Of a DNA stretch of 64,000 nucleotides, positions 13,566 to 62,778 are shown piece by piece (the first letter of the stretch is position 1; the number at the start of each line of letters is the position of its first letter). Origin of the DNA: a virus; the IMG/VR virus record IMGVR_UViG_3300045999_010503, positions 2,322 through 66,321 of that record, one strand, 5' to 3'. A program made the translations under genes and the position numbers. The notes under the pieces were generated by a model. The model had not been told where the DNA came from and searched no databases. It saw only the letters and a program-made list of their open reading frames with translations.

Positions 13566-13977
13566 CAAACCGCAGCAGTTGACCTGCCCCTGCTGCCGCG
13601 GACCGATCGAGGTCTCCTCGTATCGAGACGAGTCGTTTAGGGCCGCGCAACGGGTCGTCGTGCGGCACCCGCGTCGGCGCGTGGCGCGGCCACGTCCGTC
13701 CATGCTCGCCGCCAATTACGACCCGTTCGACTGCACCGCCTCCGTTGCCGAGGTCCCCGAGCTCGCCCTCGCGTTCCAGGTCGACGACCTGCTCAGTCTG
13801 CACGCCATCGGCGCCTACACCGACCAAATGCTCACCGACGCGGTGAGGCAACTCGGGAAGCGGTGCTTCGAGGAGCTCCAGGGCATCGCCCAGCCCGTCG
13901 CCCCGACACACAAACCCGCGCCCGCGGCCAAACTGTCCACTGGCTTCGGCAAGGACGTTCGGAGGGTCCTGGTATGA
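13540..13977 (+). CDS. Hypothetical protein ending FGKDVRRVLV
   Basis: CPCC motif; Pro/Ala linker then the shared tag. Confidence 0.7.
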   Translation: MPLPITTPNKPQQLTCPCCRGPIEVSSYRDESFRAAQRVVVRHPRRRVARPRPSMLAANYDPFDCTASVAEVPELALAFQVDDLLSLHAIGAYTDQMLTDAVRQLGKRCFEELQGIAQPVAPTHKPAPAAKLSTGFGKDVRRVLV

Positions 13978-14348
13978 AGGTCGTCGACCTCACCATCGAC
14001 TATCCCAGCCACCAGGCGGTCGACTGTTACGGCGACCACGTCGCGACGATGTATGGCCATGCGCGGGTCCGTGCGAGGGCGGCGCTCGACCCCGGCGAGG
14101 CGCCGCCTCTCGCGGGAACGGTAATCGACTTCCCCTCGTTCGGCCCGCTGCTCGTCACGCACGTCACCTATTCGCAATGGCCCTACGTCGACCTCATCGG
14201 CCAGAGCGCCGCTGGCTACGACGCCCTGCTTTTCCCGATGTCGTCGGCCAAGATCACACCACCTCAGCCTGCCCCATCCGCGCCCGTCGCGATGCCGAAA
14301 AACCCGACGCCGATTTTCGGCAAGGACACCCGGAGGATCACCGCATGA
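13974..14348 (+). CDS. Hypothetical protein ending FGKDTRRITA
   Basis: Coupled ORF; Pro-rich linker then the shared tag. Confidence 0.7.
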   Translation: MKVVDLTIDYPSHQAVDCYGDHVATMYGHARVRARAALDPGEAPPLAGTVIDFPSFGPLLVTHVTYSQWPYVDLIGQSAAGYDALLFPMSSAKITPPQPAPSAPVAMPKNPTPIFGKDTRRITA

Positions 14349-14536
14349 CCGCGGACCGCCTGCTCACCGCCGACGAGGTGATGGCCCGCTACGGCTACAA
14401 GGCCCGATCATCCTTCTGGCAGTTCGTCCATGCCAAGGGGGTGCCGCACATCCAGCTCAACGCGCGCAAGATCGTGTTCAGCCCGGCCGCCCTCGAGGCG
14501 TGGGAAGCGAAGCGCACCGTGGGGGCCCGGAAATGA
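14345..14536 (+). CDS. Excisionase-like (AlpA/MerR HTH)
   Basis: LLTADEVMARYGYK..GVPHIQLNARKIVFSPAALEAWE; near the integrase. Confidence 0.8.
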   Translation: MTADRLLTADEVMARYGYKARSSFWQFVHAKGVPHIQLNARKIVFSPAALEAWEAKRTVGARK

Positions 14537-14772
14537 GAGACCGCATCCGCTCCCTGCTCGCCGACGGCCGCGCCCGCACCTGCCGAGAGATCGGCGCCGA
14601 ACTCGGCATCATGGCCGCCCGCGCGCACTTCATTGTGCGGCATCTGGAGGACGTGCTCCGCATCCCCGGCCCGCCAACCTCCAAGCGCGCCCGCGAAGAG
14701 GGATACCGCCGTGGGCGGGGCTCCCTCTGGCGCATCGACCCCAATTTCCAATTCCGATCCTACCAACGATGA
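14533..14772 (+). CDS. Winged-HTH protein
   Basis: IRSLLADGRARTCREIGAELGI...SLWRI. Confidence 0.7.
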   Translation: MRDRIRSLLADGRARTCREIGAELGIMAARAHFIVRHLEDVLRIPGPPTSKRAREEGYRRGRGSLWRIDPNFQFRSYQR

Positions 14773-15437
14773 ACCAACTACCTACCATCTACATCGCCGG
14801 GCCCATGTCCGGCTTGCTCGACCACAACTTCCCCGCGTTCAACGCCGAGGCCTTGCGTCTTCGCGATGCCGGGCACCTCGTCCTGAACCCGGCGGAGAGT
14901 GATGGCGGCAGCACGGACAAGCCGTGGGCCTTCTACATGCGGAAGGCGCTGGCCATGCTCGTCCAGGCGGACGAGGTCCTCGCCCTGACGGGGTGGGAGC
15001 AGAGCCGGGGCGCCCGCATCGAGATACGCCTTGCTCTCTGGCTGGGGATGCCAGTTCGCCGTCAAGGCTCGGGACATCCCGTGTCGTCCTTCGACATTCC
15101 GCCGGAGGCTCACGCCCCGCGGGTTTACCTCGATCAACCTGCGCCTGCGCCCGAGCCAAGCTCGGAGACCGTGTGCCAGGAGGCCGACCGCCTCGTCTCT
15201 GGGGACCGCGGCTCCGCCTACGGGCACCCGCTCGACAACTTCACGCACACGGGCCGCCTCTGGGCGCCCATCCTCGGCCTCGACGAGGTCACGCCTGAGC
15301 AAGTGGCGCTCTGCATGATCGGCGTGAAGCTCTCGCGCGAGTGCCACAAATCGAAGCGCGACAATGCGACGGACATCGCCGGCTACGCCAAGTGCCTCGA
15401 CCTGGTGCGCGAAGAGAAGGCGCGGAGGGCGTCGTGA
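14769..15437 (+). CDS. DUF4406 (nucleoside deoxyribosyltransferase-like) fused to DUF6378
   Basis: IYIAGPMSG..NFPAF..LNPA..GWEQSRGARIE; then RGSAYGHPLDNF..QVALCMIGVKLSR..DIAGYA. Confidence 0.8.
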   Translation: MNQLPTIYIAGPMSGLLDHNFPAFNAEALRLRDAGHLVLNPAESDGGSTDKPWAFYMRKALAMLVQADEVLALTGWEQSRGARIEIRLALWLGMPVRRQGSGHPVSSFDIPPEAHAPRVYLDQPAPAPEPSSETVCQEADRLVSGDRGSAYGHPLDNFTHTGRLWAPILGLDEVTPEQVALCMIGVKLSRECHKSKRDNATDIAGYAKCLDLVREEKARRAS

Positions 15438-15634
15438 AAATCTACCTTGTGGTCTCGCACGACCGATTGGAGCCGTGGAGCTCCGTCCACAAGCGCGCCT
15501 ACCCGACCCGCGAGGCAGCGGCGAAGCGCGTAGCCCGGCTTGAAAACAGCGAAGCCGCAGAGGTCTCTTTCTTCAGAGTGGAGGAGGTTGAGTTGGTAGG
15601 GCAAACCACGCCTCTGCCTCGTCCTTCCGCATGA
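15434..15634 (+). CDS. Hypothetical protein
   Basis: GTGA-coupled KIYLVV...YPTREAA...VEEVEL; convergent overlap with the integrase. Confidence 0.6.
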   Translation: MKIYLVVSHDRLEPWSSVHKRAYPTREAAAKRVARLENSEAAEVSFFRVEEVELVGQTTPLPRPSA

Positions 15635-16733
15635 GCTCCCGGTAGTGGCGGTGCAGCACGCTCGGCGTGTTGCCCGCCTCGATCGAGGTCTCGTTCACGT
15701 TGCCCGTCACCGCCACTCGGGCCGAAATCCAGGAGTGGCGAAATCCGTTGTCGGCGAGGTCGAGCCCCGACGTCCGGCAAATATCCCTGATCCGGTCAAT
15801 CGCGAGATTGGTGCAGATCGGGCCTTTCGTCGTGCCCGGACGCAACGCCCGAAGCCGCGCCACCGCCGCCGTGGGGATTGGCACCATCCGCCGCGCCGGT
15901 GTGCGCGGCTTGGCCTTGCTGACCCGCAGGAACGCGCGATCAAGGTCGATGTCGTCCCAGGTCTGGGCGTGGACCTCCGCGCGCCGTAGGCCGCAAGCAG
16001 AGGCCAAGATGAGGGCCGGCTCATACTCCGGCTTCGCCCGGCGAACCTCGACGTAGGCCAGGGCCAGCTCCGCTGGCGTCACGAGGCCGATCTGGACACG
16101 CTTCGCCCGGACGGTGTCAGTGCGCTCCGCGGCGGTGAGCGTGTCCAGCGGGAGGTAGTTCCGCTTCCGCGCCCACCGGAAAAGGGTGACGATGCGCTGG
16201 CGGTGGCTGTTGCGGCTGTTGGCGTTCGCGAACTGGCCGAGGTAGCCGTCGAGCTCCGCCAGCCCCAGCGACTCCAGGGCGCGCCCCCGGAAGTGATCCC
16301 GGAAGCGCGGCAAGGTGCGGTCGTAGCCGGCCGTCGTGTCGACGCCCACCGATTGCTTTTGCGCGTAGAACTTTGCCACTACGTCCTCAACAAGGGCCTT
16401 GTGAGTAGAAGGTGACGCCTTGTCCCGGGCGGTTCGCCATTCGCGAATTGCGACGAGGAGCGGAGTGTCACCGGCGAGCCCCCGTGCCGCGGCGAGCTCG
16501 GCGCGGTCCTCGGAGGTCATGCCGGCGGCGTCGATCCGACCGGCGTTGAGCTGCTTGGCCTTCAGCCCGGCCTCCTCGAGCGCGGCGGCCTCGTCGGCGA
16601 ACTTCTGTTTCTTGCGGCCCTCGGCGGTTTGCCAGACCAGGACGAAGGCCCAGCCGGTGCGGTTCGTCTCGTGTCTCACGCGGTAGACCTTCACGCTCGC
16701 GTTGCCCTTCTTGATCGTCCTCGGCCAGGCCAT
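15573..16733 (-). CDS. int: Tyrosine integrase
   Basis: GLRRAE, KAK, NGFRHS, AGNT, HRHY catalytic pattern plus an arm-binding N-terminus. Confidence 0.93.
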   Translation of the reverse strand: MAWPRTIKKGNASVKVYRVRHETNRTGWAFVLVWQTAEGRKKQKFADEAAALEEAGLKAKQLNAGRIDAAGMTSEDRAELAAARGLAGDTPLLVAIREWRTARDKASPSTHKALVEDVVAKFYAQKQSVGVDTTAGYDRTLPRFRDHFRGRALESLGLAELDGYLGQFANANSRNSHRQRIVTLFRWARKRNYLPLDTLTAAERTDTVRAKRVQIGLVTPAELALAYVEVRRAKPEYEPALILASACGLRRAEVHAQTWDDIDLDRAFLRVSKAKPRTPARRMVPIPTAAVARLRALRPGTTKGPICTNLAIDRIRDICRTSGLDLADNGFRHSWISARVAVTGNVNETSIEAGNTPSVLHRHYRELMRKDEAEAWFALPTQPPPL

Positions 16734-16818
16734 CGGCAGGGACCAAAAGGGGACAGACCGAGGCGGACAACTCTATTCCACGGCGGACGGGGTTCCTCTG
16801 GACGGGGCCAGCGGAAGG

Positions 16819-16834
16819 CCTGTTCTGGGCACCA
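16819..16834 (+). other. Putative attP core matching a tRNA(-Leu) 3' end
   Basis: CCTGTTCTGGGCACCA (T-stem 3' strand, acceptor strand, ACCA) upstream of int; flanked by GGGACCAAAAGGGGACA and GGAACGGAAAGGGAACA arm-like repeats. Confidence 0.7.
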
Positions 16835-16894
16835 TTCTCCCTCTGAAGAGGGTTTCAGGGAACGGAAAGGGAACAAACCCGACGTCGGGAACCC

Positions 16895-36086: not shown

Positions 36087-37420
36087 GCTTGCTTGGGCGG
36101 GTGCATACGACGGAAGTCGTCGGCGGTCATCGCGCCAGCCGCGGGCTTGGGAGATTTGAGCCGGCGAATCGTCCGGCCCTGGTAGATCGCGAGCCCTCCG
36201 AGACCCGCCGCGGTCACGAGCGCCGCGTTGCGCACGGCGCGGATGTTCTCGGTCTTCTCGCCCCACTCCTTCGGACGGCGCTCCCGACGTCGGGAACCGG
36301 GCGCGTAGACGCGGGCGCTGCGGCCGCGGGCGTCGCGAAGGTCCCAGCCGCGCTCGAGCGGGTCGACGGTGGCGAACTCCACCAGACGGGCGTGCGCGCG
36401 GAGCGCGATGATAAGCCTGTTGGGGCGGGCGGAGAAGGGCACCAGCTTCGAGACTCGGCCCGCGAGCTTCGATTTGCCGAGGCGCTCGTTGACCTTGCGG
36501 TCCCAGCCAGTGACGTCGTCAGCGTGGACGTCCCCGCGGGCGATGGCCCGGCCGCGGCGGTGGCCCTTGGCGACGAGGAGCGGCGCGCCGATCGCTGCGG
36601 TGAGCACGGCGTTCTTGAACCAGCTCTTTTTGTAGAAGGGGTCCTTGGGCTTCCGGCCGCTGGCGATGTCGCCGATGTCTCCGGCCGCGTGGCTGGCGCG
36701 CTTGGCCCAAGGCACGACGCGGCTGGCCTTGCGATAGACCGTGAGGGGCGCGGCGCTCTCGAGGAACTCGCCAGTCTGGGTGTGGCGGTCGTTGAACTGG
36801 ACGGGGGTGACGCGGGCGATGAGCCCCTTGGTGCCGACGCGGACCGTTTTCGCCACCTTGGACTTCGACCGCTGGAGGACAGCCTGGCTCGCCTGCTGGG
36901 CCTTGGTGAGGGCCTTGACCCGGACCGTCGGCTTCACGCCGTAGTCGAACTTGCCGCCGCCCGCGTAGCGGGTCTTCGGGGCCGGCGTGCGCTGCTTGAG
37001 TGTGTCCTCGTAGGTCATGCCGTAGTCAAACTTGCCGCCGCCCGCGTAGCGGGTCTTGGCGGGCTTCGGGGCGGGCGCGGAACGCAGCCCGCCGACATAC
37101 TCGGCGGTCTTCACCTTGTTGCGGGCGTCAGTCTTCTCGGTCTTCGCCGCAATTCGGGTCTGGGCGACCGCCTCCTTGGCGGCGACGCGCTCGGTGCGGG
37201 CAGCCTCCTTGGAAGCGGCCTCGGCCTCGCGCATCGCGGCGGAGCGCGCCTTCTGGGAGGCCTTCTTGCGGGCCGCGCCGGCCCACATCTTGTAGACGCC
37301 GCCGACGACGAGCGCCGGGGCGACGACCGAGGCGACCTTGCCAGCTACGCTGCGGCCTTCCTCTTGCTCGGGTTGGCGAGCGCGGAACTCGATGACGGCA
37401 CGGCGGAGGAGCGGGTTCAT
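36083..37420 (-). CDS. Basic putative internal head protein with an internal repeat
   Basis: After portal; KTRYAGGGKFDYG occurs twice; three hydrophobic segments. Confidence 0.65.
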   Translation of the reverse strand: MNPLLRRAVIEFRARQPEQEEGRSVAGKVASVVAPALVVGGVYKMWAGAARKKASQKARSAAMREAEAASKEAARTERVAAKEAVAQTRIAAKTEKTDARNKVKTAEYVGGLRSAPAPKPAKTRYAGGGKFDYGMTYEDTLKQRTPAPKTRYAGGGKFDYGVKPTVRVKALTKAQQASQAVLQRSKSKVAKTVRVGTKGLIARVTPVQFNDRHTQTGEFLESAAPLTVYRKASRVVPWAKRASHAAGDIGDIASGRKPKDPFYKKSWFKNAVLTAAIGAPLLVAKGHRRGRAIARGDVHADDVTGWDRKVNERLGKSKLAGRVSKLVPFSARPNRLIIALRAHARLVEFATVDPLERGWDLRDARGRSARVYAPGSRRRERRPKEWGEKTENIRAVRNAALVTAAGLGGLAIYQGRTIRRLKSPKPAAGAMTADDFRRMHPPKQA

Positions 37421-39785: not shown

Positions 39786-39986
39786 TCAACCCGCGCCAAC
39801 CCTCGCCAGCGTGAAGGTCTTCTTGAACGCCTTCAAATCGCCGCGCCAGGTCATGCCCGCGCCGCCACCCGTGCCAACCTCGCTCCAAAGGACCATGTCC
39901 TGCGGATTGACCTCGACGACGCGGAAGACGTGGCCGGCCAGCGGGCCCGACTGAGACACGGCTTTGAAACGACGGTCCCAGTTCAT
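39786..39986 (-). CDS. Hypothetical protein
   Basis: Coupled ORF. Confidence 0.55.
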   Translation of the reverse strand: MNWDRRFKAVSQSGPLAGHVFRVVEVNPQDMVLWSEVGTGGGAGMTWRGDLKAFKKTFTLARVGAG

Positions 39987-40624
39987 GCGAGGTCGCGGAA
40001 GATGGGGGCAAGAATCTTGCGGAGCTCGACGCGCATGACCGGGGTCATGCCCGAGCGCGCGGCATTGTAGTCGCGCGCGAACTGGCGCGTGGTCTCGAAG
40101 ATCGAGGTGGTGCCGGCGTCGGCCCGCTCGGGGGCGTGCTCGGCGTGGTCGCGGCGGAGCCTGTCGCGGAGCTGGCGGACGCTGACCCCGCCCTGGCTCA
40201 CGTAGTCGACCCAGGCCTCGTGCTCATCGGGGTCGGCGCGGCCAACGATCTCGACGGCGTGGCTGAAGGTGACGTGGTCCCGACGTCGGGAAATGGGGAG
40301 CCGACGGCAGACGGTGGCGGCATTGCGGAGGGTCTGCTCGGCGAGGCCGGTCTTCTCGGATATGTCGGCGTAGAGCTCGGACGGCTCACGGTCGCCCCAG
40401 TGGCTCTTGCGGAAGCGGTCGTTGCCGTAGACCAGCCAATCACCGATGGCCCAGGTCGCCATGCGGTTCACGTCGACGACGGCGCGGCCGACGCGCATCC
40501 AGTCGTCGTAGCTGAGGCCGTCAGGGATGACGAGGCCGTTGCGTTCGGGGATCACGCCCTCCGGGAGCGGCGCGATCGAGGCGGAGGGGGCTGCGGTTGG
40601 TGAGAGCGTATTGGCGGCTTGCAT
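39983..40624 (-). CDS. LmbU-like DNA-binding protein
   Basis: GLVIPDGLSYDDWMRVG..WAIGDWLVYG..QTLRNAATVCR..RRDHVTFSH..SVRQLR. Confidence 0.75.
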   Translation of the reverse strand: MQAANTLSPTAAPSASIAPLPEGVIPERNGLVIPDGLSYDDWMRVGRAVVDVNRMATWAIGDWLVYGNDRFRKSHWGDREPSELYADISEKTGLAEQTLRNAATVCRRLPISRRRDHVTFSHAVEIVGRADPDEHEAWVDYVSQGGVSVRQLRDRLRRDHAEHAPERADAGTTSIFETTRQFARDYNAARSGMTPVMRVELRKILAPIFRDLA

Positions 40625-40983: not shown

Positions 40984-43917
40984 TCAAGAGCGATTGTTAG
41001 GAGTTGTTATCTCCATGAGGCCGGTGGCGCAGGCGGCGGCGAGGGCCATTCGGAGGCAGTTGCCGGCGATGCTCGGGAATCCCTTGCGGCGGACGATCAA
41101 AGTGCCGTTGGGGACCGTCGCGCAGTAGACCGGGCCGGAGTAGGGCACCTTCTCGACGAGGAACTTGTTCTTGCAGTCGCGGAGGAGGACGTGAGGGATG
41201 TTGCGAACTGTTACCCGGTAGTGGGGTAGAGCCACGCCGGAGCGCCCAGCGATGTTCCAGACGCCCTCGGGCATCGCGACCGTGCGCGAGGTGAGGCCAA
41301 CCTTCAGAAGCAGTTCGGCCGTGTCGTCCGCGAGCTGCTTGCTCGTGGTGGAGAGAAGGCGCTTCTTGCCCAAGTGGCCGTCCCCGAGAAACAGGCCCGC
41401 GAGATAGGCAGAGATGACGCGGGGGGTGGCATCTTTGATCCACTGCGGAACTCGCTTGTTCTCGGCCAGATGACCGCACTCGGAGACGAGCGCGGTGAGC
41501 TGCTGGTTTCCGGCGTAATAGGTGCCGCGCTTATTGCGACTGAACTTCCACGGGAGCCGGCTGAGGGTTTCGCGCCACAGCGCGCCATCGCGGACGGTGC
41601 CGACCTTCTGAGACACGTCGGTCTGGCTCGACCCGTCCCGACGTCGGTATAGGCAGCCCTCCGCGGTGAACCAGCCGAGGAATCGGGCCAACACCTCGCG
41701 ATCCACTTCCGTCGCTTTCATGCAGCGGGTGGCGGGTATTTGAACTGGCCCAGTGAGGCCATCGCCCTCCCACACGGACGCCGTGACCTTGATGCGGTCC
41801 CAAAGGGTGAGCTCATCGGCGCGCTTGATTGAGTCGACGAAGCGTTGGCGGAGCGTGCCGAACTCGTCGCGGAAATGCCGACGCTCCTCGACGACCATGC
41901 GGTGGTCGGGCGTGACCGCGAACGACATCGCGCGGTGCTTGCACTCGAGCAGGTGACCGTCGTGGTGCTTAGCGATGAGGGCCTCGGGGCGGTGGTATTC
42001 GATCTGGTCGCGGTCCAGGTTCACCGTCGCGAAAAGGCTGTCGTGGCTCACCTCGGTCCACTTCTTCCAGCCGTCGCGGGTAAGCACCTCAGTCTCGGGG
42101 TCAAAACACGAGCCCCAGTGATCGTCGGGGCGCTTCTGCACCCACTCGGTCTCGATCACGCCGTTGGCCTTCTCGTTGTCCCGGCGCTCGTAGGCGGTGA
42201 GCTGCATCTTGAACTCGTGGAGGTCATCGCCGTTGCCATTGATCTCAAACCGCGGGCCGACGCCGCGCATGCAGGCCTCCGCGCGGTCGAGCATGGAGGA
42301 CTTGCTGAAGAGGAGCTGACGGAGCGGGGCGGCGCGGCCCGCCTGCTCGCTGCCGAGGTAGGGGTCGACGAAGGACCAGGTGTAGGGCAGGCGCAGGGTC
42401 TTGCCGTCGCCGAGCGCGAGGGTGTAGTGCGGGGCCTTGTCGCCCTTCATCGCTTTCCAGGCGTAGTTGCCGTCGGGGAGCTGGCCGCTCTCGAGGATGT
42501 AGCGGTAGACCTCCGCGGCCCAGTGGCCGCTGTCGATGCCGACGTTGGAAGCGGGGACGTGGTAGGTGGTCTGGAGGGCGCGCAGCTCCTCGACGCTCCA
42601 GGCCTTGCCCCAGGCGACGGCGCGGTGGGCGCCGCCCTGGGCAAAGTCGAAGACGCCCCAGTAGAAGTGCCGACCGCCCTTGCCCTGGACGTCGACCATC
42701 ATAAAGCGCCGCGCGGGCACGAAGGGCGGCAGGGTGGCGTCGTTGAAGTCGACGACGCGGTCGTCGATGTAGCTGTCGGATTTGCCGTAGCGCATCCGGT
42801 CGGTCCAGGGCTGACCGAGCTTCTCGGTGATGAAGGCCTTCAGCGGCTCGAAGTCGCCGTAGTCGTTGGCGATCTCGGCCTGGACGAACTGCTGCACGAG
42901 GGCCGACCATTTGATCCAGTAGGGTAGGAGGGCGTTCCAGGTGTAGCTGCGGCGCTCGGCGGGGGCGCTGGGGTTGTGCGGCACCCACTGACCGCGGTCG
43001 GCGAGCGTGCGGCGGATGTCCGGGCGGTCTTGGTGGAGGTGGCCGCAGCGGGGGCAGACGTAACGGACGTGCGGGGCGAGCTTGTCGAAGTCCCACTTGC
43101 CGTCGGGAGTCTTGGCGCCGAGCACGTCCGACCACTTCACGCAGCGGGGGCGGCCGGTCGCGTCGGTCTCGGTCGGGTGCGCGGCCTTCATGTTCGCCCA
43201 GTCGAGCGGGCCGGAGTAGTCGCAGGCCTCGTTCAGGCAGGGGACGTGGTAGTGCCGCTGGTCGCCGTTCAGAAACTCGTTGTGGACGGTGTCGCGCTCC
43301 TTCTCCGGTGTGGTCAGGATGACGATGCGGCTGTTCCAGAAGGTGGTGACGCGGGCCTTGGCCATCGGCAGCGCCCAGGCGGGCCAGTTGCGCACCTCGT
43401 CGCAGAGGAGAAATCGGCGGGGGCGGCTCTGGAGCTTCGCCTTGGCGTTGGCGCCGACCGCCTCCAGCATCATCGTCGGGAAGAGGATCTCAGTCGTCTT
43501 CGCCAAGGTGCGGTCGTCGGGGATGGAGGAGGCGACGGGCGGGCACGACCGCAGAGCGGGCATGAGGCGCTCGTTGCAGAACTTCAGGGCCTCGTCCTCC
43601 GACGACGTGATCCACATGGTCGGGGACGGGTCCTCGGCCACGATCCAGGAGAGGAGGGCCAGCATGGTCTCCGTCTTCGAGGACTGGGCGGAGCAGAGGA
43701 CGGTGATCTGGCGGATCGAGTTGTCGGCGAAGGTCTCCATGACCTCGCGCACCCACGGGGAGGTTTCGCTGCGCCACTTGCCGCCGGCGGAGAGGGCCGA
43801 GACGGGCGGGACATAGTAGTCCTCGGCCCATTGCCACGGCGGACGGCGGTCGGCGGGCTTCCAAGCCAACGTGGCGGCCTTGGCGACCGGGTCGTAGGCG
43901 GGGGCAGGGGTGCTCAC
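40984..43917 (-). CDS. terL: Terminase large subunit, GpA type, with intein
   Basis: SAQSSKTE Walker A, LLCDEV, GDQRHYHVPC, VDVQ, IDSG. Confidence 0.92.
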   Translation of the reverse strand: MSTPAPAYDPVAKAATLAWKPADRRPPWQWAEDYYVPPVSALSAGGKWRSETSPWVREVMETFADNSIRQITVLCSAQSSKTETMLALLSWIVAEDPSPTMWITSSEDEALKFCNERLMPALRSCPPVASSIPDDRTLAKTTEILFPTMMLEAVGANAKAKLQSRPRRFLLCDEVRNWPAWALPMAKARVTTFWNSRIVILTTPEKERDTVHNEFLNGDQRHYHVPCLNEACDYSGPLDWANMKAAHPTETDATGRPRCVKWSDVLGAKTPDGKWDFDKLAPHVRYVCPRCGHLHQDRPDIRRTLADRGQWVPHNPSAPAERRSYTWNALLPYWIKWSALVQQFVQAEIANDYGDFEPLKAFITEKLGQPWTDRMRYGKSDSYIDDRVVDFNDATLPPFVPARRFMMVDVQGKGGRHFYWGVFDFAQGGAHRAVAWGKAWSVEELRALQTTYHVPASNVGIDSGHWAAEVYRYILESGQLPDGNYAWKAMKGDKAPHYTLALGDGKTLRLPYTWSFVDPYLGSEQAGRAAPLRQLLFSKSSMLDRAEACMRGVGPRFEINGNGDDLHEFKMQLTAYERRDNEKANGVIETEWVQKRPDDHWGSCFDPETEVLTRDGWKKWTEVSHDSLFATVNLDRDQIEYHRPEALIAKHHDGHLLECKHRAMSFAVTPDHRMVVEERRHFRDEFGTLRQRFVDSIKRADELTLWDRIKVTASVWEGDGLTGPVQIPATRCMKATEVDREVLARFLGWFTAEGCLYRRRDGSSQTDVSQKVGTVRDGALWRETLSRLPWKFSRNKRGTYYAGNQQLTALVSECGHLAENKRVPQWIKDATPRVISAYLAGLFLGDGHLGKKRLLSTTSKQLADDTAELLLKVGLTSRTVAMPEGVWNIAGRSGVALPHYRVTVRNIPHVLLRDCKNKFLVEKVPYSGPVYCATVPNGTLIVRRKGFPSIAGNCLRMALAAACATGLMEITTPNNRS
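41059..42108 (-). mobile_element. Intein with LAGLIDADG homing endonuclease (350 aa)
   Basis: CFDPETEVLT block A, VTPDHRM block B, FLGWFTAEG and YLAGLFLGDG, VYCATVPNGTLIVRR..GN followed by C. Confidence 0.92.
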
Positions 43918-53322: not shown

Positions 53323-54330
53323 ATGAGCCTGTCAAACAAAGTCCTCTGCATCAACCTCCGCACGAGCTGCCTCGGCACCTCGTTCGTCGATAGCACCCTT
53401 ACCGCCCACCTCGAACACGTCACCGGCGCCGACAAGAAGAAGGTCAAGGGCTCCAAGAAGATCCTCGGCGACGCCCTCAAGGAGATCCAGTCCGAGCTCC
53501 GCGGCGTGAAGACCTTCGCCAAGGAGAACAGCCTCCCCGGCATCAGCGACGACCTCCGCATCATCACCCCGAAGCTCCTCGACAAGGTCCGCGCCGAGGT
53601 GCTCGCCACCGAGGAGCGCATCCAGGCGCTCGTCGCCAAGTTCTCCGAGGTCGTCTCGTTCACCCCGGCCACCGTCACCGATCAGGTCGACGAGCGCGGC
53701 CAGCGCATCGTCACGCTCCACGAGCCGATGACGATGACGCTCTGGCAGTCGCTCCAGGAGCAGGACAAGATCGACCTCAAGGGCGCCTTCGACCCGCACG
53801 ACTACCCGCCGCTCGAAAACCTGCCGCAGTTCTTCAGCGTCCGCCTCACCACCTGCGACCTGCCGCAGGGCGACTTCTTCCGCGTCGAGGGTCTCACTGA
53901 CGAGGCCGTGGAGAAGCTCAAGGCCGACCACGCCAAGATGATCGAGTCGATCAGCAGCGCGGCCCGCAACGACGTCCACCGCAAGCTCGTGGAGATGGTC
54001 AACCGCGTCGCCGAGTCGCTCGCCAAGGAAGACATCAGCAAGCTCCACAACACCACCTTCACCAACCTGCTCGACTACCTCGACCAGGTGCCCGACCTCA
54101 ACATCACCAACGACCCGCACCTCGACGCGATGGTCCGCGAGGTCCGCGAGAAGCTCAATTTCACGATGGCGCAGGTCAAGGCGTCCGCCGTGCTCAAGGA
54201 GCAGGCCGCGGCTGCCGCCAAGGACATCCTCAACCGCTTCGGCAAGTCCGAGCGCAAGGTCATCGTCGATCTGTCCCCCGAACCCGTGGCCGCCGAGTCT
54301 TGCCCCGCGTCGGTCGAGTCGGCCGCCTGA
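53323..54330 (+). CDS. DUF3150-like helical protein
   Basis: GSKKIL, SLPG..LRII, FDPHDYP, LNITNDPHL; heads the AAA module. Confidence 0.7.
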   Translation: MSLSNKVLCINLRTSCLGTSFVDSTLTAHLEHVTGADKKKVKGSKKILGDALKEIQSELRGVKTFAKENSLPGISDDLRIITPKLLDKVRAEVLATEERIQALVAKFSEVVSFTPATVTDQVDERGQRIVTLHEPMTMTLWQSLQEQDKIDLKGAFDPHDYPPLENLPQFFSVRLTTCDLPQGDFFRVEGLTDEAVEKLKADHAKMIESISSAARNDVHRKLVEMVNRVAESLAKEDISKLHNTTFTNLLDYLDQVPDLNITNDPHLDAMVREVREKLNFTMAQVKASAVLKEQAAAAAKDILNRFGKSERKVIVDLSPEPVAAESCPASVESAA

Positions 54331-54354: not shown

Positions 54355-54828
54355 ATGAGTCATGTTGAGACAGCACGCGTTACTATAACCGACCTCGATG
54401 CCCTGAAAGCCGCCTGCGCCCGCCTCGGCGTCGAGTTCGTCGAGAACAAGAAAACCTACAACTGGTATGGGCGGCACATGGGCGACTACCCGCCGCCAGC
54501 CGGGTTCAACCCGTCTGACCTCGGCCACTGCGACCACGTCGTCCGCGTGCCGGGTGTCAACTACGAGATCGGCATCGTCAAAGCCCGCAACCCGGACGGC
54601 ACGCCCGCCAAGGGTTACACCTGCCTGTTCGACTTCTGGGGAACGGGTGGCAGCAGCCGCCACGACGGCCAAAAGCTGCTCAAGCAGTTCGGCCAGGGCC
54701 TCGTGAAGCTCGTCGACGCCTATTCCGTCGAGGCGCTCAAGGCGGTCGCCCGCAAGAAGGGCTACACGACCAGCGAGTCCAAACTACCGAACGGCAAAAC
54801 CAAGCTCCTCGTCACGGGGTTCGCGTAA
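54355..54828 (+). CDS. DUF1257 (Ycf35-like) protein
   Basis: MSHVETARVTITDLDALKAACARLG..YEIG..FDFW..AYSVE..KGY. Confidence 0.85.
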   Translation: MSHVETARVTITDLDALKAACARLGVEFVENKKTYNWYGRHMGDYPPPAGFNPSDLGHCDHVVRVPGVNYEIGIVKARNPDGTPAKGYTCLFDFWGTGGSSRHDGQKLLKQFGQGLVKLVDAYSVEALKAVARKKGYTTSESKLPNGKTKLLVTGFA

Positions 54829-54830: not shown

Positions 54831-55025
54831 ATGACCAACTTCACCGTAGTCGGGTTCTGGCCCGACACCGACGAACGCTTTGCGGACTCCGTCGACGCCG
54901 ACACGCCCGCAGAAGCCGAAGCGAAGATAGGCCGCAGCCACCCGGGGGTCGCCATCGTCGCGGTTCTCAGTGGGCACGTCGTCGTGGAAGACGCCGACGT
55001 GCTCGTAAATTACACCACACCATGA
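54831..55025 (+). CDS. Hypothetical protein
   Basis: Coupled small ORF. Confidence 0.65.
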   Translation: MTNFTVVGFWPDTDERFADSVDADTPAEAEAKIGRSHPGVAIVAVLSGHVVVEDADVLVNYTTP

Positions 55026-55231
55026 GCAATCTCAAAACCATCGAGTTCATCGTCGGCGACGGCGAAGTCGTCATCGAGGCCTCCGGCTTCAAGGGCGGCG
55101 CCTGCGAGGCCGCCAGCAAAGCCTTCGAGGACGCCCTCGGCGGCAACGTCACCGGCAAGAAACGCAAGGCCGAGTTCTATCAGGCCGCGCCCACCCAGAA
55201 ACTCACGACCGGAGGGAAATCAAATGGATGA
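55022..55231 (+). CDS. DUF2997 protein
   Basis: GEVVIEASGFKGGACEAASKAFEDALG..KAEFY. Confidence 0.88.
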   Translation: MSNLKTIEFIVGDGEVVIEASGFKGGACEAASKAFEDALGGNVTGKKRKAEFYQAAPTQKLTTGGKSNG

Positions 55232-55550
55232 CCACGAAAAGACCCTCGCCGAAATGCTCGGCCGCGCCTCAACCGACATCATCAAGGCCGAGGTCCAACG
55301 GACGGCCTTCCTGGCCCAGCAGATGGCTGAAATGGGCCTCGGCACTACCCTCGCCGCACAGTTTGGCCGCCCACCAGACGCCCCGGACACCGCAGCGACC
55401 ACCGTGGTCATCCTCCTCAGCGGCCGCTTCCCGCAGGATCTTGTCGACGGGCTTATCAAGCACGTGAACGGCCTCATCCAAGACTTCCGGGCCGGCAACA
55501 AGGCGCACTTCGTCGACCTGAGACCCAAGAAGCATGAAACCCCCGAGTGA
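55224..55550 (+). CDS. Hypothetical protein
   Basis: Overlapping ORF within the module. Confidence 0.6.
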   Translation: MDDHEKTLAEMLGRASTDIIKAEVQRTAFLAQQMAEMGLGTTLAAQFGRPPDAPDTAATTVVILLSGRFPQDLVDGLIKHVNGLIQDFRAGNKAHFVDLRPKKHETPE

Positions 55551-55794
55551 GGTCACCCTGATCGTCGGCGACGGCGAGATCACCGCCCTCGCCGGCGGCC
55601 CGATCAGCCTCGCCGACATGGGCGAGCGCAAGACGAAGCGCGTCTCCACGCTCGAGTTCAGCTCCATCGACAACCAGTGGCACGTCTTCGACGCCGCGAC
55701 CGGCGCCGACCTGTATTCGCACCACGACTACGACGTCGCCCTCGCGTGGGAGATCGCCCACTTCAACCGCGTCCTCGAAACCGTCGAGACGTGA
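55534..55794 (+). CDS. Small module protein with a DUF2997-like N-terminal hairpin
   Basis: TLIVGDGEI, RVSTLEF..QW..ALAWE. Confidence 0.7.
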   Translation: MKPPSEVTLIVGDGEITALAGGPISLADMGERKTKRVSTLEFSSIDNQWHVFDAATGADLYSHHDYDVALAWEIAHFNRVLETVET

Positions 55795-55894: not shown

Positions 55895-55971
55895 CGCACC
55901 GTCTGGCCGAAGGTAGGCTGATCCGTCTGCAAAACGGGGAACAGAGGGTTCGATTCCCTCCGGTGCGTCCA
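55895..55971 (+). tRNA. tRNA-Cys(GCA) with an unusual D arm
   Basis: CGCACCG/CGGTGCG, TCCGT-CTGCAAA-ACGGG, GAGGG-TTCGATT-CCCTC, U discriminator, CCA. Confidence 0.85.
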
Positions 55972-56436: not shown

Positions 56437-56679
56437 ATGGACGAAGAAACCTACTCCCTCTGCGAAGCCGTCGCCGATCTGGCGCTCTGGGCCGGGCACG
56501 ACCTGGCGAAGGGGCTCTGGGAGCGCCCGCCCGACAGCCGAGAGCTCGTGCGCCTGCTCCTCGAGTGGGCGGAAGAGTTCGAGCGCGACAACGCCGGCCG
56601 TGAATGGGACGGCGAATACCTGGAAGCCATCGACAGCTTCTACCGGCAGAAAATCAAAGAACTCTCTCAAACCACATGA
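56437..56679 (+). CDS. Small acidic protein
   Basis: Coupled to the AAA gene. Confidence 0.7.
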   Translation: MDEETYSLCEAVADLALWAGHDLAKGLWERPPDSRELVRLLLEWAEEFERDNAGREWDGEYLEAIDSFYRQKIKELSQTT

Positions 56680-58232
56680 CCGAACGCATCACCAACTACC
56701 TCCGGGCCGGCTATTCCGGCCTCTACGTCGTCAGCCACGAGGAGGCCCGCGCCGAGGCGGCCGTTGCCGACTCGATTGAGCGTCTCAACAGCAAACTCCC
56801 CAAGAACGACCCCAAGGTTCCGACCTTCAAGCTCTTCGCATGGTCCCTCACGCAGGGCACCGTGGACGCCCGCACCGGCGACGCCGTCGGCAAGGACCAC
56901 GGCGTCGAGGAAGTGCTCGTCTGGTTCCAAGAACAGCCCGAGAGCAGCGTCCTCCTGCTCCGCGACTACCACCTGTTCGTCGAGGACAAGAACCCGGTCG
57001 TCTGGCGCCGTCTCCACGACGTCCTCCGCTCCGGCAAGGCCGCCAACAAGGCCGTCGTCATCCTCGCCTGCCGCCTCGCCATCCCGCCCGAGCTCGAAAA
57101 GGAGATCACGGTGCTGGATTTCTCGCTCCCGACCCGCGAGCAGCTCCGCGACACCCTCGCCGATCTCGTCGAGGGCAACAAAATCAAGCCCGAGAAAGTC
57201 GAGGACGCCGGATTGCTCGCCGCCGCTGCCGCCGGCCTCACCGCGGCCGAGGCGGAGCAGGCTTTCGCGCTCTCCCTCGTCGAAACCGGGCGCATCACCC
57301 GCGAAATCGTCTTCCGCGAGAAGTGCCAGGCCGTCCGCAAGAACGGCATGCTCGAAATCGTCGAGGGCAAGGTGACCCTCGACGACATCGGCGGCCTCGA
57401 GAACCTGAAAAAGTGGCTCCTGGAGCGCCGTGACGCCTTCAGCGACGAGGCGCGGGCCTACAACCTCCCGGTTCCCCGCGGCTGCCTCGCCGTGGGCCAG
57501 CCCGGCACCGGCAAATCGCTCACCGCCAAGGCGACCGCGAGCGTATTCGGCGTTCCACTACTGCGCCTCGACGCCGCCAAGCTCTTCGGGTCGCTTGTCG
57601 GCCAGTCCGAGGCCAACTGGCGCGCCGTCCACGCCACCGCGAAGGCGATGGCGCCCTGCATCCTCTGGATCGACGAGGTCGACGGCGCGATGTCGGGCTC
57701 CGGCAGCAGCGGCCAGACCGACGGCGGCACCACCGCCCGCGTCGTCAAGTCCATCCTCCAGGACATGCAGGACAACAGCGAGGGCATCTTCTACATGCTC
57801 ACTGCGAACGACGTGGACGCGTTGCCCTCGCCCCTCCTGCGCCGCATGGACGAGGTCTGGAACGTCGAGCTCCCCACCGCCGCCGAGCGCGAGATAATCT
57901 GGGGCATCCAGCTCCGGCGCGTGAAGCGCGACCCCGCGACGTTCGACCTCACCAAGCTCGCGACGGACAGCGTCGACTACTCCGGCGCCGAGATCGAGAA
58001 GGCCGTGGCCCAGGCGCTCTACCGTGCGTTCCCCGAACGCCGCGAGCCGACGATGGAAGACTTCGCAGCCATCACCAAGGAGTTCATGCCCCTCGCCAAG
58101 ACGATGAGCGCCGACATCGAACGCCGCCGCAAGCGTCTGGAGGGCGTCGCGAAGTTGGCCGGCGGCACGGTCAAGGTCGTGCAAGCGAAGCCGGCGCGGA
58201 AAATCCTGAGCGTGGGAGGGAAGGCCGCATGA
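56676..58232 (+). CDS. Ycf46-like AAA+ ATPase (degenerate N-AAA, active C-AAA)
   Basis: SHEEAR, IPPELEKE, DIGGLENLKKWL, GQPGTGKS, LWIDEVD, TAN, LLRR. Confidence 0.92.
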   Translation: MTERITNYLRAGYSGLYVVSHEEARAEAAVADSIERLNSKLPKNDPKVPTFKLFAWSLTQGTVDARTGDAVGKDHGVEEVLVWFQEQPESSVLLLRDYHLFVEDKNPVVWRRLHDVLRSGKAANKAVVILACRLAIPPELEKEITVLDFSLPTREQLRDTLADLVEGNKIKPEKVEDAGLLAAAAAGLTAAEAEQAFALSLVETGRITREIVFREKCQAVRKNGMLEIVEGKVTLDDIGGLENLKKWLLERRDAFSDEARAYNLPVPRGCLAVGQPGTGKSLTAKATASVFGVPLLRLDAAKLFGSLVGQSEANWRAVHATAKAMAPCILWIDEVDGAMSGSGSSGQTDGGTTARVVKSILQDMQDNSEGIFYMLTANDVDALPSPLLRRMDEVWNVELPTAAEREIIWGIQLRRVKRDPATFDLTKLATDSVDYSGAEIEKAVAQALYRAFPERREPTMEDFAAITKEFMPLAKTMSADIERRRKRLEGVAKLAGGTVKVVQAKPARKILSVGGKAA

Positions 58233-59315: not shown

Positions 59316-59624
59316 ATGAGACTCGTCCAATTCCCGCCGCTCTGCCCGTTCGGTAGCGAAGATGACGCGGCGCTGATCGAGTCGCCCGGCAGCCGATACT
59401 ACATCATGCCGATCGCGGAGAAAGACATCTTCGTCCGCATCTGCATTCACGAGGGCGGCGAAGTCGCCTACAACATCGCCGAGCAGGTCGAAATCTCGGA
59501 CCTCATGCACGACGCCGTCGCAGGTCTGGAGGACGTTTTCAGGGTCGACAAGACGAGTCGCGAACGGCTCCGCAAGTGGGGCTTCTGCTCGCTGCTGGGT
59601 CGAATAATCTATAACAACACCTAA
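59316..59624 (+). CDS. Hypothetical protein
   Basis: ORF upstream of the ligase. Confidence 0.6.
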   Translation: MRLVQFPPLCPFGSEDDAALIESPGSRYYIMPIAEKDIFVRICIHEGGEVAYNIAEQVEISDLMHDAVAGLEDVFRVDKTSRERLRKWGFCSLLGRIIYNNT

Positions 59625-59629
59625 CAACC

Positions 59630-60628: not shown

Positions 60629-60843
60629 GCCTGGAGAGCCGTCTCCGTCGCCGCTACGGGCGTCAGCGGCAGCGACTCGCGAAGCTGGAGAAGGAGTTCG
60701 ACGCCTTCGTCCGCTCCAACATGGACGACCCGGAAGCCCGTGCGGCCTATGCCGCAGAGGCCAACCGCAAATACTTCAAGCTGACCGAGCAGATGGCCAG
60801 CACCCGCGAGCAGTATGCCCGCGCCAAGAACGGACCGCCGTGA
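60625..60843 (+). CDS. Hypothetical coiled-coil protein
   Basis: GTGA-coupled ORF. Confidence 0.6.
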   Translation: MSLESRLRRRYGRQRQRLAKLEKEFDAFVRSNMDDPEARAAYAAEANRKYFKLTEQMASTREQYARAKNGPP

Positions 60844-60964
60844 AACCACAATACGAACGCACCTCCTGGGGCTGGCTCGCCTACGTCTGCCACGCCCGGT
60901 ATCTCTACACCGGACGCGGCGGCACGAAGCGCGAGGCCCGGAGCGCGCTCAAAGCACGACTCGC

Positions 60965-61318
60965 ATGAAAACACTACGCATCTGGGTTCCCGGCTACAAC
61001 CCCTGGGTCATGGGCGGCCACGTCCACTACACGCTCGCCACCGACGTCGAGTGCGACGGCCCGTTCGAGGTCGGGAAGGGCCTCTGCGCCTACACGGCCA
61101 AGGCCCCGAACGGCACCGAGTTCGTGGTCGACAGCGTCAGCCTCGGCGTCGTCGGCGACTCCCTCGAAGCCGTCCGTAAGGACGTCGAGGAGGGCGCGCT
61201 CGACGTCATGCACCGGCAGCAGCGCGACGCCCTGGCTCGCTACGAACGGGACCGCGACCGGGGCGCGGTCGAAGTCCGGGAGCCCGGCTACTTCTGGGCG
61301 AAACTCAACGCGATCTGA
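60965..61318 (+). CDS. Hypothetical protein
   Basis: Start MKTLRIWV. Confidence 0.7.
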   Translation: MKTLRIWVPGYNPWVMGGHVHYTLATDVECDGPFEVGKGLCAYTAKAPNGTEFVVDSVSLGVVGDSLEAVRKDVEEGALDVMHRQQRDALARYERDRDRGAVEVREPGYFWAKLNAI

Positions 61319-61319
61319 A

Positions 61320-61541
61320 ATGACCACCTCCGAACAGATTGCCGCCATCGGCACCGTCGACCGCCCCAAGCATCGCTGGCGAGCCGAGAGCGACGGCGAC
61401 CCGCACCGGAAAGTTTTCTACGTCATCGACTCCTTCACCCTCAACCGCCGCGACTGCGCCTCCATGAAGGACGCGCGGGGGCTGGCGAAGGAACTTAACG
61501 CACAATGCCAAACGTCCTCTACGACTCTCGCCATCCGCTGA
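61320..61541 (+). CDS. Hypothetical protein
   Basis: Adjacent ORF. Confidence 0.6.
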   Translation: MTTSEQIAAIGTVDRPKHRWRAESDGDPHRKVFYVIDSFTLNRRDCASMKDARGLAKELNAQCQTSSTTLAIR

Positions 61542-61837
61542 CGACCTGCGAGTTCGCGAACCTCCACCGCCAGATCGGCGTCCTCGTCCACGCCCCGTTC
61601 CACCACGCCGGCCTGAACCGAGAGATGGTCGACGTCTCCTACGAGATCCCGACCCACAACACCCGCACCTTCGGCCGCTGCTGCGCCCTGGCCGAGTGGC
61701 CGGAGAAGGCGAAGGAGAACACGGCCCGCATCATCGCGGAGATCGACCGGCAGATCGCGGAGCTGACCGCGCATCGCGAGCGCCTGGCGGCCGAGCTGAC
61801 GAAGCCGATCGGGGCCTCCAAACACTGCACGATATGA
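61505..61837 (+). CDS. Hypothetical protein
   Basis: C-terminal coiled coil. Confidence 0.65.
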   Translation: MPNVLYDSRHPLTTCEFANLHRQIGVLVHAPFHHAGLNREMVDVSYEIPTHNTRTFGRCCALAEWPEKAKENTARIIAEIDRQIAELTAHRERLAAELTKPIGASKHCTI

Positions 61838-62172
61838 GCATCTTCTCCCAAGCCCGCGCCGGACTCGCCCAGGGCCTCGCCAAGGCCAAACTCGCCGAGT
61901 TCCTGAAGCCGTATGGCGTCTCCGTCTCCGAGCTCTCGTTCGAGAGCGGCGGGCGCTTCTCCGTCGTGCTGGAGGGCGTTCTGCCGGACGACGAGGAGGA
62001 CGTCGGTCTGTCGGGCCGCATCGCTTTCGAGGGCGACAGAGCGATCCTCACCTACCTCGGCCCAGACCGGCGCTGGGAGTCCCTGACCCGCGCCATCTCA
62101 AAGCACCTCGTCAACACGCCCCTTCCCCTGTCTCCCGATCAAGTGAACCAACTCCGCAAACTCTGGCCCTGA
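61834..62172 (+). CDS. Hypothetical protein
   Basis: Coupled ORF MSIFSQAR. Confidence 0.7.
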   Translation: MSIFSQARAGLAQGLAKAKLAEFLKPYGVSVSELSFESGGRFSVVLEGVLPDDEEDVGLSGRIAFEGDRAILTYLGPDRRWESLTRAISKHLVNTPLPLSPDQVNQLRKLWP

Positions 62173-62173
62173 T

Positions 62174-62656
62174 ATGCCCCTCCCCACCGACATAGTCCAA
62201 GCCAAGCGCACCTTCCGTCAATGCGCCAAGGATTCAGTCGGCACGGTGTTTCACCAGCAGCCCTACGCTTTGGCGGAGGGCACCGCGGTCTTCACGATCA
62301 AGCGCGCAGCCGAAGCTCTTGAGGGTGAGATCATGTTCCCGAGCCGGGCGGCACTCAATGCAGCTACCAAGCGAGGCCCCGTATTTCATGGCACCTTCCA
62401 GTCTAGCGTCGCGGAGGCGGACAGGCGCTATTCGATCCATTGGTTTTACGACCAGTTCGGCGACTGCCCGTTCAGCGCGCTCAAGACGGGCAACTACCGT
62501 GACCTCGACGCGACAGAGTGGGGGACGCAAGAGGTCCTGGACGACTGCATCGACGAGGTGCGGCGCGTCCTGGGCATCGACATCCCCGTCGTCGTGAGCG
62601 CGAAAGCGGCGGCCCCGGTCAAGTTCGGCCGCGCCGTCAGAAAGCTGATCCTGTGA
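62174..62656 (+). CDS. Hypothetical protein ending FGRAVRKLIL
   Basis: Carries the shared C-terminal tag. Confidence 0.7.
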   Translation: MPLPTDIVQAKRTFRQCAKDSVGTVFHQQPYALAEGTAVFTIKRAAEALEGEIMFPSRAALNAATKRGPVFHGTFQSSVAEADRRYSIHWFYDQFGDCPFSALKTGNYRDLDATEWGTQEVLDDCIDEVRRVLGIDIPVVVSAKAAAPVKFGRAVRKLIL

Positions 62657-62778
62657 CTTTCCACCCGAACCTCGGATACCCTTCCGACTCGTCATCATTC
62701 ACGGCGCCGCCGGCGCCCGCACCCAAACCGCCCGCCGTCGTCTTCGGCAAGGAGACGCGGCGGGTCATTCTTCCCTGA
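62653..62778 (+). CDS. 41-aa microprotein ending FGKETRRVILP
   Basis: GTGA-coupled; MTFHPNLGYPSDSSSFTAPPAPAPKPPAVVFGKETRRVILP. Confidence 0.6.
   Translation: MTFHPNLGYPSDSSSFTAPPAPAPKPPAVVFGKETRRVILP

Follow-up and report, generated by a model that had tools for sequence, protein, structure and literature searches.

A basic C-terminal peptide shared by a phage Cdc48-like AAA+ ATPase, its DUF3150-like neighbour and unrelated early proteins

In cells, AAA+ machines such as the proteasome, Vps4, ClpX and p97 are surrounded by networks of short linear motifs that are of central importance. The HbYX tails of proteasomal AAA+ ATPases (PAN/Rpt and archaeal Cdc48) occur also on unrelated activators and assembly chaperones. 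MIT-MIM contacts recruit ESCRT-III subunits to Vps4, and the C-terminal XB tail of SspB binds the N-domain of ClpX. Unfoldases of the Rix7/Cdc48/Pex type use terminal peptides to dock partners, and the adaptors of the p97 C-terminal tail are an example of such tail docking. Unrelated proteins with a common C-terminal peptide are also the pattern of clamp-binding networks, for which the bacterial consensus is QL[SD]LF or QLxLxL; proteins of phage T4 carry C-terminal gp45-binding tails. We know of no such motif network for a phage-encoded machine. Here we describe a C-terminal tag, FG[KR]xxR[RK] followed by hydrophobic residues, in a stretch of 64,000 nucleotides from IMG/VR virus record IMGVR_UViG_3300045999_010503. 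This stretch, called the window below, spans bases 2322-66321; the whole viral record has 66,321 bp and is classed as complete by CheckV.

A sequence-only reading of the window had noted the tag on five proteins, at the extreme C-terminus of four. A six-frame scan with FG[KR]xx[RK][RK] finds all five copies (at 13945, 14316, 54238, 62624 and 62743) on the plus strand and in coding frames, and the only other matches in the window, at 36270 (plus strand) and 13828 (minus strand), are in non-coding frames. Four copies lie 10-11 residues before the stop codon, and the fifth, in a DUF3150-like protein, lies 30 residues before it. The observation is real and larger than first noted. A sixth copy, ending in PFGAEPRRILP, is found shortly before the window begins, at the end of the gene at record bases 1593-1946, and the tail of an AAA+ ATPase (ending in KPARKILSVGGKAA), previously regarded as a partial copy, is a true seventh. 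With starts that are approximate, a simple codon-usage caller gave 99 genes, 4 of which have a strict C-terminal tag, compared with a mean of 0.023 and a maximum of 2 when the last 40 residues of each protein were shuffled 2000 times. Within the 19,561 residues of the window genome's proteins, there is one internal match.

The bodies of the carriers are unrelated, as had been claimed: an all-against-all phmmer comparison at E<=1e-5 yielded no match among carriers within the genome. Most carriers, gene B among them, also lack a Pfam or PHROG family. Conservation is indeed at the peptide level, with the tag kept in orthologues while the linker varies. The statement that the codons differ holds only in part, as 0-3 of the 3-6 codons for identical residues differ between copies, and the codons of genes A and B (Table 1) are identical.

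Comparison of the copies and their relatives refines the motif. The core that is conserved reads R-[RK]-[ILV]-x-hydrophobic; it forms the C-terminus or lies close to it, and is preceded by a variable Pro/Ala linker, such as the one before the tag of gene A. An FG is often present upstream of this core yet is dispensable; the conserved part is R-[RK]-[ILV], not FG. The family of gene D illustrates this organization. All seven of its members (48-100% identity) have the tail and R156 is invariant, but the linker varies in both sequence and length. An invariant tail behind a variable linker is typical of a short linear motif that is flexibly tethered. Searches for loci with the single D or DUF3150-like protein returned no relatives, which were found with alignments instead. 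The putative open reading frame (ORF) E consists of nothing but a Pro-rich linker and the tag. Its guanine plus cytosine (GC) content by codon position is 0.62/0.60/0.76, and it has no counterpart in the closest relative, a provirus (G001).

A 75-residue protein has a possible degenerate copy, and no homologue in any of five related records (G001-G005). An apparently membrane-spanning protein of 58 residues matches the loose core, which is probably explained by chance or by a ribosome-binding-site constraint.

The tail has spread onto further proteins in related phages. Together with the window genome (G000), the whole related records G001-G005 make up six genomes with a module encoding AAA+, DUF1257 and DUF2997 proteins. 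In G001, the D homologue ends in FGKSVRKLIL, the gene after the primase in FGSAPRKILL and a HIRAN-domain protein (Pfam E 1.3e-13) in FGKAPRKILL. The G001 homologue of the gene just upstream of the window ends in RPVRKLFLP, and the neighbour of this homologue in G001 ends in PGRKILLPP. Three consecutive genes after the primase of G003 end in RRKILL, ARKLLL and PRKILV, and the tailed post-primase genes of G001 and G003 have no detectable similarity in their bodies. A reverse transcriptase (RVT_1, E 1.9e-22) in G004, G005 and locus L176 ends in PFGIFNRKITA behind a Thr/Pro-rich linker. The peptide is thus portable, in agreement with the sequence-only reading, and in the window's phage lineage at least five early proteins of unrelated sequence have additionally acquired the tail.

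This spread accompanies the module. As a control, we used 57 loci (904 kb, 1457 genes) of DUF3150 phages that lack the AAA+/DUF1257/DUF2997 module. The strict tag occurs on 12 of the 431 genes in the six module genomes and on none of the control genes (Fisher p = 1.8e-8), and the core tag on 23 and 5 genes, respectively (Fisher p = 3e-11); the six-genome counts are not fully independent, as G004 and G005 are near-duplicates. The proposal that the tag is tied to the module is therefore upheld, both by its absence in strict form from the control loci and by the DUF3150-like protein, which carries the tag only where the module is present.

The latter result comes from a wider survey. Relatives of the DUF3150-like protein are encoded by 504 viral stretches, of which 80 loci were kept. 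The C-terminus of the protein is of the FG..RK.. type in 6 of the 80, the rest mostly ending in ILxKF[ED]W or otherwise. When every gene of the window genome was used as a phmmer query against 139 fetched loci, the DUF3150-like protein was found in 137, the DUF1257-like protein, DUF2997 and the ATPase each in 10 and an 86-residue protein in 9. The 10 module loci are those FG..RK..-ending loci that have enough flanking sequence. A five-gene core, namely the DUF3150-like, DUF1257-like, DUF2997 and 86-residue proteins and the ATPase, is common to G001-G005, all five of which encode the ATPase at 51-68% identity. In the DUF3150 phages without the ATPase module (loci L009-L082), the protein mostly ends in IL(G/K)(K/R)F(E/D)W, a conserved aromatic-acidic C-terminus. 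In those fetched loci whose DUF3150 protein ends in F[EDNQS][WF], no other ORF shares the ending.

The DUF3150-like protein itself matches no Pfam family at E<=0.01, and thus does not reach the gathering score of PF11348. One of its 44 homologues (P0042, 36% identity) carries PF11348. Its AlphaFold 2 model has a predicted local distance difference test (pLDDT) value of 87, falling below 50 in the tail, which is disordered from residue 312. This model matches a viral "DUF3150 domain-containing protein" in BFVD (E 5e-13, TMq 0.67). Given the homology chain through P0042 and this fold match, we assign the protein by sequence and model as a distant DUF3150 member. A Foldseek search with the model found no match in the PDB. 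We also tried to derive a function from the fold, but VIA-align gave only generic helical bundles (residues 187-320, Z up to 9.3), and this route was abandoned. An alignment of 26 homologues shows a conserved AAKxILxRFG(x2-4)RK[LV], in which R311 occurs in every sequence and G307 in at least 90%. A disordered extension of 20 residues follows the tag in the window's protein, while the shorter homologues terminate with the tag (FGALGxRKLVA).

The other module proteins are small and lack the tail. The 157-residue protein has no Pfam match (E<=0.01). By Atlas language-model features it scores 0.94 to clusters in which 38-44% of members carry DUF1257, and its predicted structure has a template-modelling (TM) score of 0.74/0.91 to a DUF1257 (PF06868, Ycf35) cluster. 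DUF1257-like proteins begin with Met-Ser-(His/Lys/Gln), encoded at 54355-54363 in the window, with Met1 and Ser2 each present in at least 90% of 22 diverse sequences. An exposed N-terminal Ser, after removal of the Met, may be functionally relevant, although this is speculation. The DUF2997 protein matches PF11211 over the whole model with 44.6 bits (cut-off 24.1, E 1.4e-11). A gap of about 640 bp between the 86-residue gene and a gene of 80 residues lies inside the module, is non-coding and contains a predicted tRNA-Cys.

The ATPase is the most informative carrier. It matches PF00004 (AAA, E 5e-26) and, weakly, AAA_lid_3, and with NCBIfam it has generic classic-clade similarity only (FtsH, Cdc48, PAN and CdvC). 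Its model, built from an alignment of 75 sequences, has a pLDDT of 92. The best Foldseek matches in the PDB are the tandem D1-D2 unfoldases Rix7/NVL, Cdc48/p97 and Pex1/6 (E ~1e-23), with a TMq of ~0.6 over ~540-580 columns and 18-22% identity. Sequence and model together thus place it as a classic-clade AAA+ protein of tandem (type II) architecture. The N-terminal 225 residues form an AAA-like domain with SHEE where the P-loop would stand, and so this first (D1-like) domain is probably inactive. The phage ATPase shares with Cdc48/p97, Rix7/NVL and Pex1/6 two stacked AAA-type domains, but differs from them in having no N-terminal cofactor-binding domain, in the SHEE at the first P-loop site and in its low identity to them.

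The tail is common among homologues of this protein. A search with the N-terminal 225 residues found 85 homologues, and 69 of these have R[RK][ILVMF] within their last 20 residues, mostly with the motif at the fifth residue from the end (GRKIAA, RRMEL or RKLEV). A profile search of 1.84 billion representatives found 11,823 proteins at E<=1e-30, part of which may belong to other AAA+ families. R-x-hydrophobic-x-hydrophobic stands among the last 5-8 residues in 43 of the best 133 representatives with a typical length, compared with a mean of 3.4 after shuffling. Relatives of the ATPase are encoded on more than 300 viral contigs. Judged from these sequences, the tail is a C-terminal hallmark of a large phage Cdc48/Rix7-like AAA+ family. 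The class of tail differs between phage lineages, with RKLAA, RxLDL and EEDL forms.

Relatives of the ATPase vary in other ways. Some homologues have 868-872 residues, and one (P0046) has an intein-splicing domain. A sister class (loci L206-L262, for example L214:8434-10872, L231 and L256) ends in R-x-[LI]-D-[LIV]. Its ATPase gene is followed by one for a protein of ~260-300 residues that ends in QLDLI, QLELI, SLELF or QFGFEL and resembles a clamp-binding motif there, and next by one for a protein of ~113 residues ending in GGxTWHxGH. In loci of low GC content (33-35%; L192-L200 and L228), most of which come from records of 76-358 kb, ATPase relatives end in EEEDL or DEDDL, and no DUF1257 or DUF2997 was detected nearby.

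Within a genome, the tails of the ATPase and the DUF3150-like protein resemble each other. The window genome has PARKILS in the ATPase and SERKVIV in the DUF3150-like protein, each with further residues behind it. The corresponding C-terminal ends are KTRKIAKAA and TTRKIAKAA in G004/G005, NIRKLAA and GNRKLAA in L168, GGRKLAN and GARKLAA in L166, and SRAATLDL and SRASVLEL in L191. A distant phage of 40% GC (L181/L182) has an ATPase tail NMRKLSIAIGHEE, which includes NMRKLSI. The next gene in this phage (334 residues) ends in EYFRKLSI, and a gene of 130 residues ends in EEFRKLAI. When the two tails were compared across 15 non-redundant genome pairs, identity amounted to 3.47 of 7 anchored positions, versus 2.41 after permutation, and none of 5000 permutations reaches the observed value; related genomes share some of the changes, so the effective sample is below 15.

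Table 1. Positions of the tagged genes, the module and other features in the window
Feature	Positions	Strand	Remarks
75-residue protein	3656-3883	+	possible degenerate copy; ends in GKRARKLIKAARRANAQEGSA; 21 residues before stop
Paralogue, early region	4098-4478	+	
58-residue protein	4475-4651	+	ends in GYRRVFLG; CGGAGG before overlapping start
Gene A (~91 residues, start uncertain)	13702-13977	+	directly after primase-like gene; FGKDVRRVLV (13945-13974), then stop
Gene B (124 residues)	13974-14348	+	ATGA overlap with A; FGKDTRRITA (14316-14345), then stop
DUF4406-DUF6378 fusion	14769-15437	+	just 3' of A and B
Integrase-like gene	15573-16733	-	
Paralogue, beside terminase	39983-40624	-	
Large terminase (977 residues)	40984-43917	-	gpA ATPase and nuclease domains; LAGLIDADG_3 at residues 834-882
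DUF3150-like protein (335 residues)	53323-54330	+	FGKSERKVIV (54238-54267), end of last helix
DUF1257-like protein (157 residues)	54355-54828	+	tail-less; core module member, candidate receptor
DUF2997 protein (69 residues)	55022-55231	+	tail-less; core module member, candidate receptor
86-residue protein	55534-55794	+	tail-less; conserved with module in this clade
tRNA-Cys (GCA)	55895-55971	+	called by ARAGORN
AAA+ ATPase (518 residues)	56676-58232	+	predicted degenerate D1-like N-terminal domain and active AAA domain; tail core 58188-58208
Gene D (160 residues)	62174-62656	+	FGRAVRKLIL (62624-62653), then stop
ORF E (41 codons, putative)	62653-62778	+	GTG start overlaps D stop; FGKETRRVILP (62743-62775), then stop

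We suggest that the tail is an address label, i.e., a short linear docking motif that is read by the AAA+ machine; our analysis makes this reading somewhat probable. A docking motif with one co-evolving site is suggested because the peptide is tethered, is shared by the ATPase, its neighbour and a changing set of other proteins, diverges between lineages and co-varies within a genome. The divergence of the tail between phage lineages also favours a co-evolving, phage-encoded receptor over a conserved host hub. The fold of the ATPase speaks for docking as well, since unfoldases of this type bind partners through terminal peptides. One common site belonging to the AAA+ machine would read all tails, and this site would be on the D1-like ring of the ATPase or on the tail-less DUF1257-like or DUF2997 partners. 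The DUF3150-like and accessory proteins would be tethered to the ATPase through their tails and possibly remodelled, while the tail of the ATPase itself would compete for the common site or dock the ring onto it. The more specific proposal, that a peptide address code recruits early and replication proteins (DUF3150-like, HIRAN, reverse transcriptase and small unknowns), in a set that changes, to a Cdc48-like unfoldase via a co-evolving phage receptor, is tentative, and we are inclined to doubt it in this full form.

The sequence-only reading had already suggested a docking or substrate tag directed to the phage's own module. Portability and the link to the module survive from this suggestion. 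However, the DUF3150-like and AAA+ proteins are not simply the receptor machine, as both carry the tail themselves, and the core of the motif is not FG.

Two candidates for the receptor can be considered. A receptor should not carry its own ligand, and both the DUF1257-like protein and DUF2997 are tail-less, which makes one or both of them candidates. Alternatively, the receptor may be the D1-like domain of the ATPase, with the ATPase tail acting as a competitor; the ATPase and its tail-bearing neighbour are the only constant pair. We predicted a complex of ATPase residues 1-490, the DUF1257-like protein, DUF2997 and ORF E, without controls, and obtained a score of 0.01 against a mark of 0.32. 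With four chains and a disordered partner of 41 residues, this prediction is unlike the tool's calibration and counts neither way.

Besides the near-duplicate genomes, several observations weigh against docking on a phage-encoded site. DUF1257 and DUF2997 were undetected within 6 kb in 29 of 43 R-x-L-D-L loci with a tailed ATPase, which argues against them as universal receptors. A receptor is normally without its own ligand, yet the ATPase carries the tail, which argues against the D1-like domain. The ATPase model leaves the tail undocked with a pLDDT of 51-55, although this is a model of the monomer and not of the hexamer. We also evaluated whether complementary charges at tail position +3 and at residue 12 of the N-domain of the ATPase might mark a contact. 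Among 295 sequences (151 tailed), residue 12 is basic with an acidic tail +3 in 22.9 of 33, as opposed to 4.1 of 47 (cluster-weighted), and residue 199 behaves similarly towards tail +3. In a tree test, however, only ~1.0 of ~9 independent pairs changed in the same direction, and residue 12 ranked 34th of 124 columns in the tree-based test. We therefore treat the covariation as a clade effect. Finally, the clade with extra carriers is narrow and probably corresponds to one host group, so that linkage to the module is not fully separable from linkage to the host.

The proposed docking can be compared with described systems. As with HbYX tails, a conserved peptide occurs at the extreme C-terminus of a classic-clade AAA+ ring, behind a flexible linker, and unrelated proteins share the peptide, presumably for the same site. 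The phage motif differs in being R-[RK]-[ILV]-x-hydrophobic without Tyr and in sometimes having residues after it. The tails end in RKLAA, RRVLV, RKLIL or RxLDL, and a penultimate Tyr is no feature of those that we inspected, although we made no count. No 20S-like partner was recognised among the phage proteins scanned, many of the small ones being unannotated. In the Vps4 MIT-MIM and SspB-ClpX systems, different proteins likewise have a common C-terminal motif on a linker, which there tethers them to a non-catalytic N-domain. Unlike those systems, the phage ATPase carries the motif itself, and at its N-terminus it has a degenerate AAA (D1-like) domain rather than an MIT or zinc-binding domain.

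Docking of the carriers on a host hub, of which the sliding clamp is the most plausible and a chaperone or protease adaptor site (ClpX or DnaK) the next, is the alternative that we take most seriously, yet it is unlikely. The tagged genes are in the replication region, beside primase, DNA polymerase A and ligase, and the carriers in relatives include HIRAN and reverse-transcriptase proteins. The DUF3150-like protein and a DNA polymerase A homologue co-occur in 41 loci. In their terminal peptide on unrelated proteins and their replication-gene context, the tags are like clamp-binding motifs, including the gp45 tails of T4. The likeness extends to the ~270-residue neighbour of the sister-class ATPases, which ends in PQLDLI, PQLELI, PSLELF or QFGFEL, similar to the bacterial clamp consensus. 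Moreover, R-K followed by Leu, Ile or Val resembles DnaK-binding and ClpX C-motif-2 peptides. By contrast, the window tags are basic, and none of the seven tags of the genome has a Gln in register, where clamp-binding motifs have Gln at position 1 and hydrophobic residues at positions 2, 4 and 5. No clamp gene was found among the proteins scanned. The class of tail changes from one phage lineage to another, unlike the clamp pocket and its motif, which are conserved across bacteria. The tag is also linked to the AAA+ module, being absent from the DUF3150 proteins of phages without the ATPase, and the ATPase is itself a carrier whose tail co-varies with that of its neighbour. A further alternative is a degron-like substrate tag that is engaged by the ATPase pore, instead of a stable docking peptide, so that early proteins bearing it would be unfolded or eliminated at set times. 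This is disfavoured by the presence of the tag on the ATPase itself and on its constant neighbour. A pore tag would fit the classic-clade AAA+ unfoldase fold, the disordered and terminal nature of the tails and the small early proteins that carry them, and known C-terminal unfoldase tags are basic-hydrophobic, e.g., the MuA tail for ClpX. However, Pfam, PHROG and NCBIfam scans revealed no recognisable protease in the module, several proteins have 3-24 residues after the motif, and a sequence so strictly conserved is more suggestive of a specific pocket than of engagement by pore loops. We therefore rate the pore tag as a little less likely even than the host hub.

The tags might also resemble each other as a by-product at the nucleotide level, if they contained a Shine-Dalgarno sequence for a translationally coupled downstream gene or if the ends of genes shared a repeated DNA element. 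The Arg-Arg of the tags in A (13957-13962) and B (14328-14333) is encoded by CGGAGG, as is that of the 58-residue protein, and GGAGG is located 9-13 nucleotides before the ATGA-overlapping start of the next gene. By its sequence, the CGGAGG of A and B is dual coding, specifying part of the tag and a ribosome-binding site, and this use for the next gene may be why A and B have RR instead of the RK of the family. In addition, the next gene overlaps or directly adjoins 18 of the 45 genes with a tail. Elsewhere the pattern breaks down. The tags of relatives are mostly Arg-Lys, encoded by CGC-AAA or CGC-AAG (22 of the 45), which is not Shine-Dalgarno-like, and 24 of the 45 carriers have more than 30 nucleotides, or no gene, downstream. 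On this codon use and spacing, a Shine-Dalgarno sequence was rejected as the general cause of the tag. The copy in the DUF3150-like protein is 30 codons before the stop, and the motif persists in records ranging from 40% to 66% GC. Nucleotide identity between tags is 14-22 of 30, and our codon comparison of the copies revealed no long nucleotide repeat. A nucleotide-level origin is thus very improbable.

We now note properties of the source genome. The record has a GC content of 66% and represents a tailed phage, with a lambda-type portal and gpA-type terminase on the minus strand. The early/replication region on the plus strand encodes a DUF2800-domain helicase, a family A DNA polymerase, a DUF5906 primase-like protein and an ATP-dependent ligase. 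The sources of several homologous proteins give Opitutaceae bacterium TAV1 or Verrucomicrobiota as their origin, and the host is therefore probably an Opitutaceae-type bacterium. An Rfam scan of the window at gathering thresholds produced no match. The LAGLIDADG_3 match within the large terminase suggests an intein or homing-endonuclease insertion. Two genes, one located in the early region and the other next to the terminase, are paralogues (phmmer E 1e-8), and homologues are present in G001-G003. In the DUF4406-DUF6378 fusion, DUF4406 is a nucleoside 2-deoxyribosyltransferase-like domain.

Motif-based docking around an AAA+ machine is already known; what would be new here is a phage system made up entirely of uncharacterised families, as the partners of the ATPase are all domains of unknown function. 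The set has a cellular parallel. The AAA+ protein Ycf46, Ycf35 (DUF1257) and DUF2997 of cyanobacteria and plastids are the same three families together, to which the phage version adds a DUF3150-like partner. A DUF2997-ycf35(DUF1257)-fed7 gene cluster is listed in a review of cyanobacterial ferredoxins (PMC4284462). In our literature searches, we found no functional work on the DUF3150/DUF1257/DUF2997, Ycf46/Ycf35 or Cdc48-like phage AAA+ families in phages. The conserved, portable tail could be used as a bait for the receptor and as a label for listing clients. The clients seen so far, which include replication-linked, HIRAN and reverse-transcriptase proteins, suggest that the machine acts on the phage replication apparatus. 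If the proposed docking is correct, the tail could route any protein to the ATPase machine, and it would provide the first experimental handle on the Ycf46/Ycf35/DUF2997 set that these phages share with cyanobacteria and plastids.

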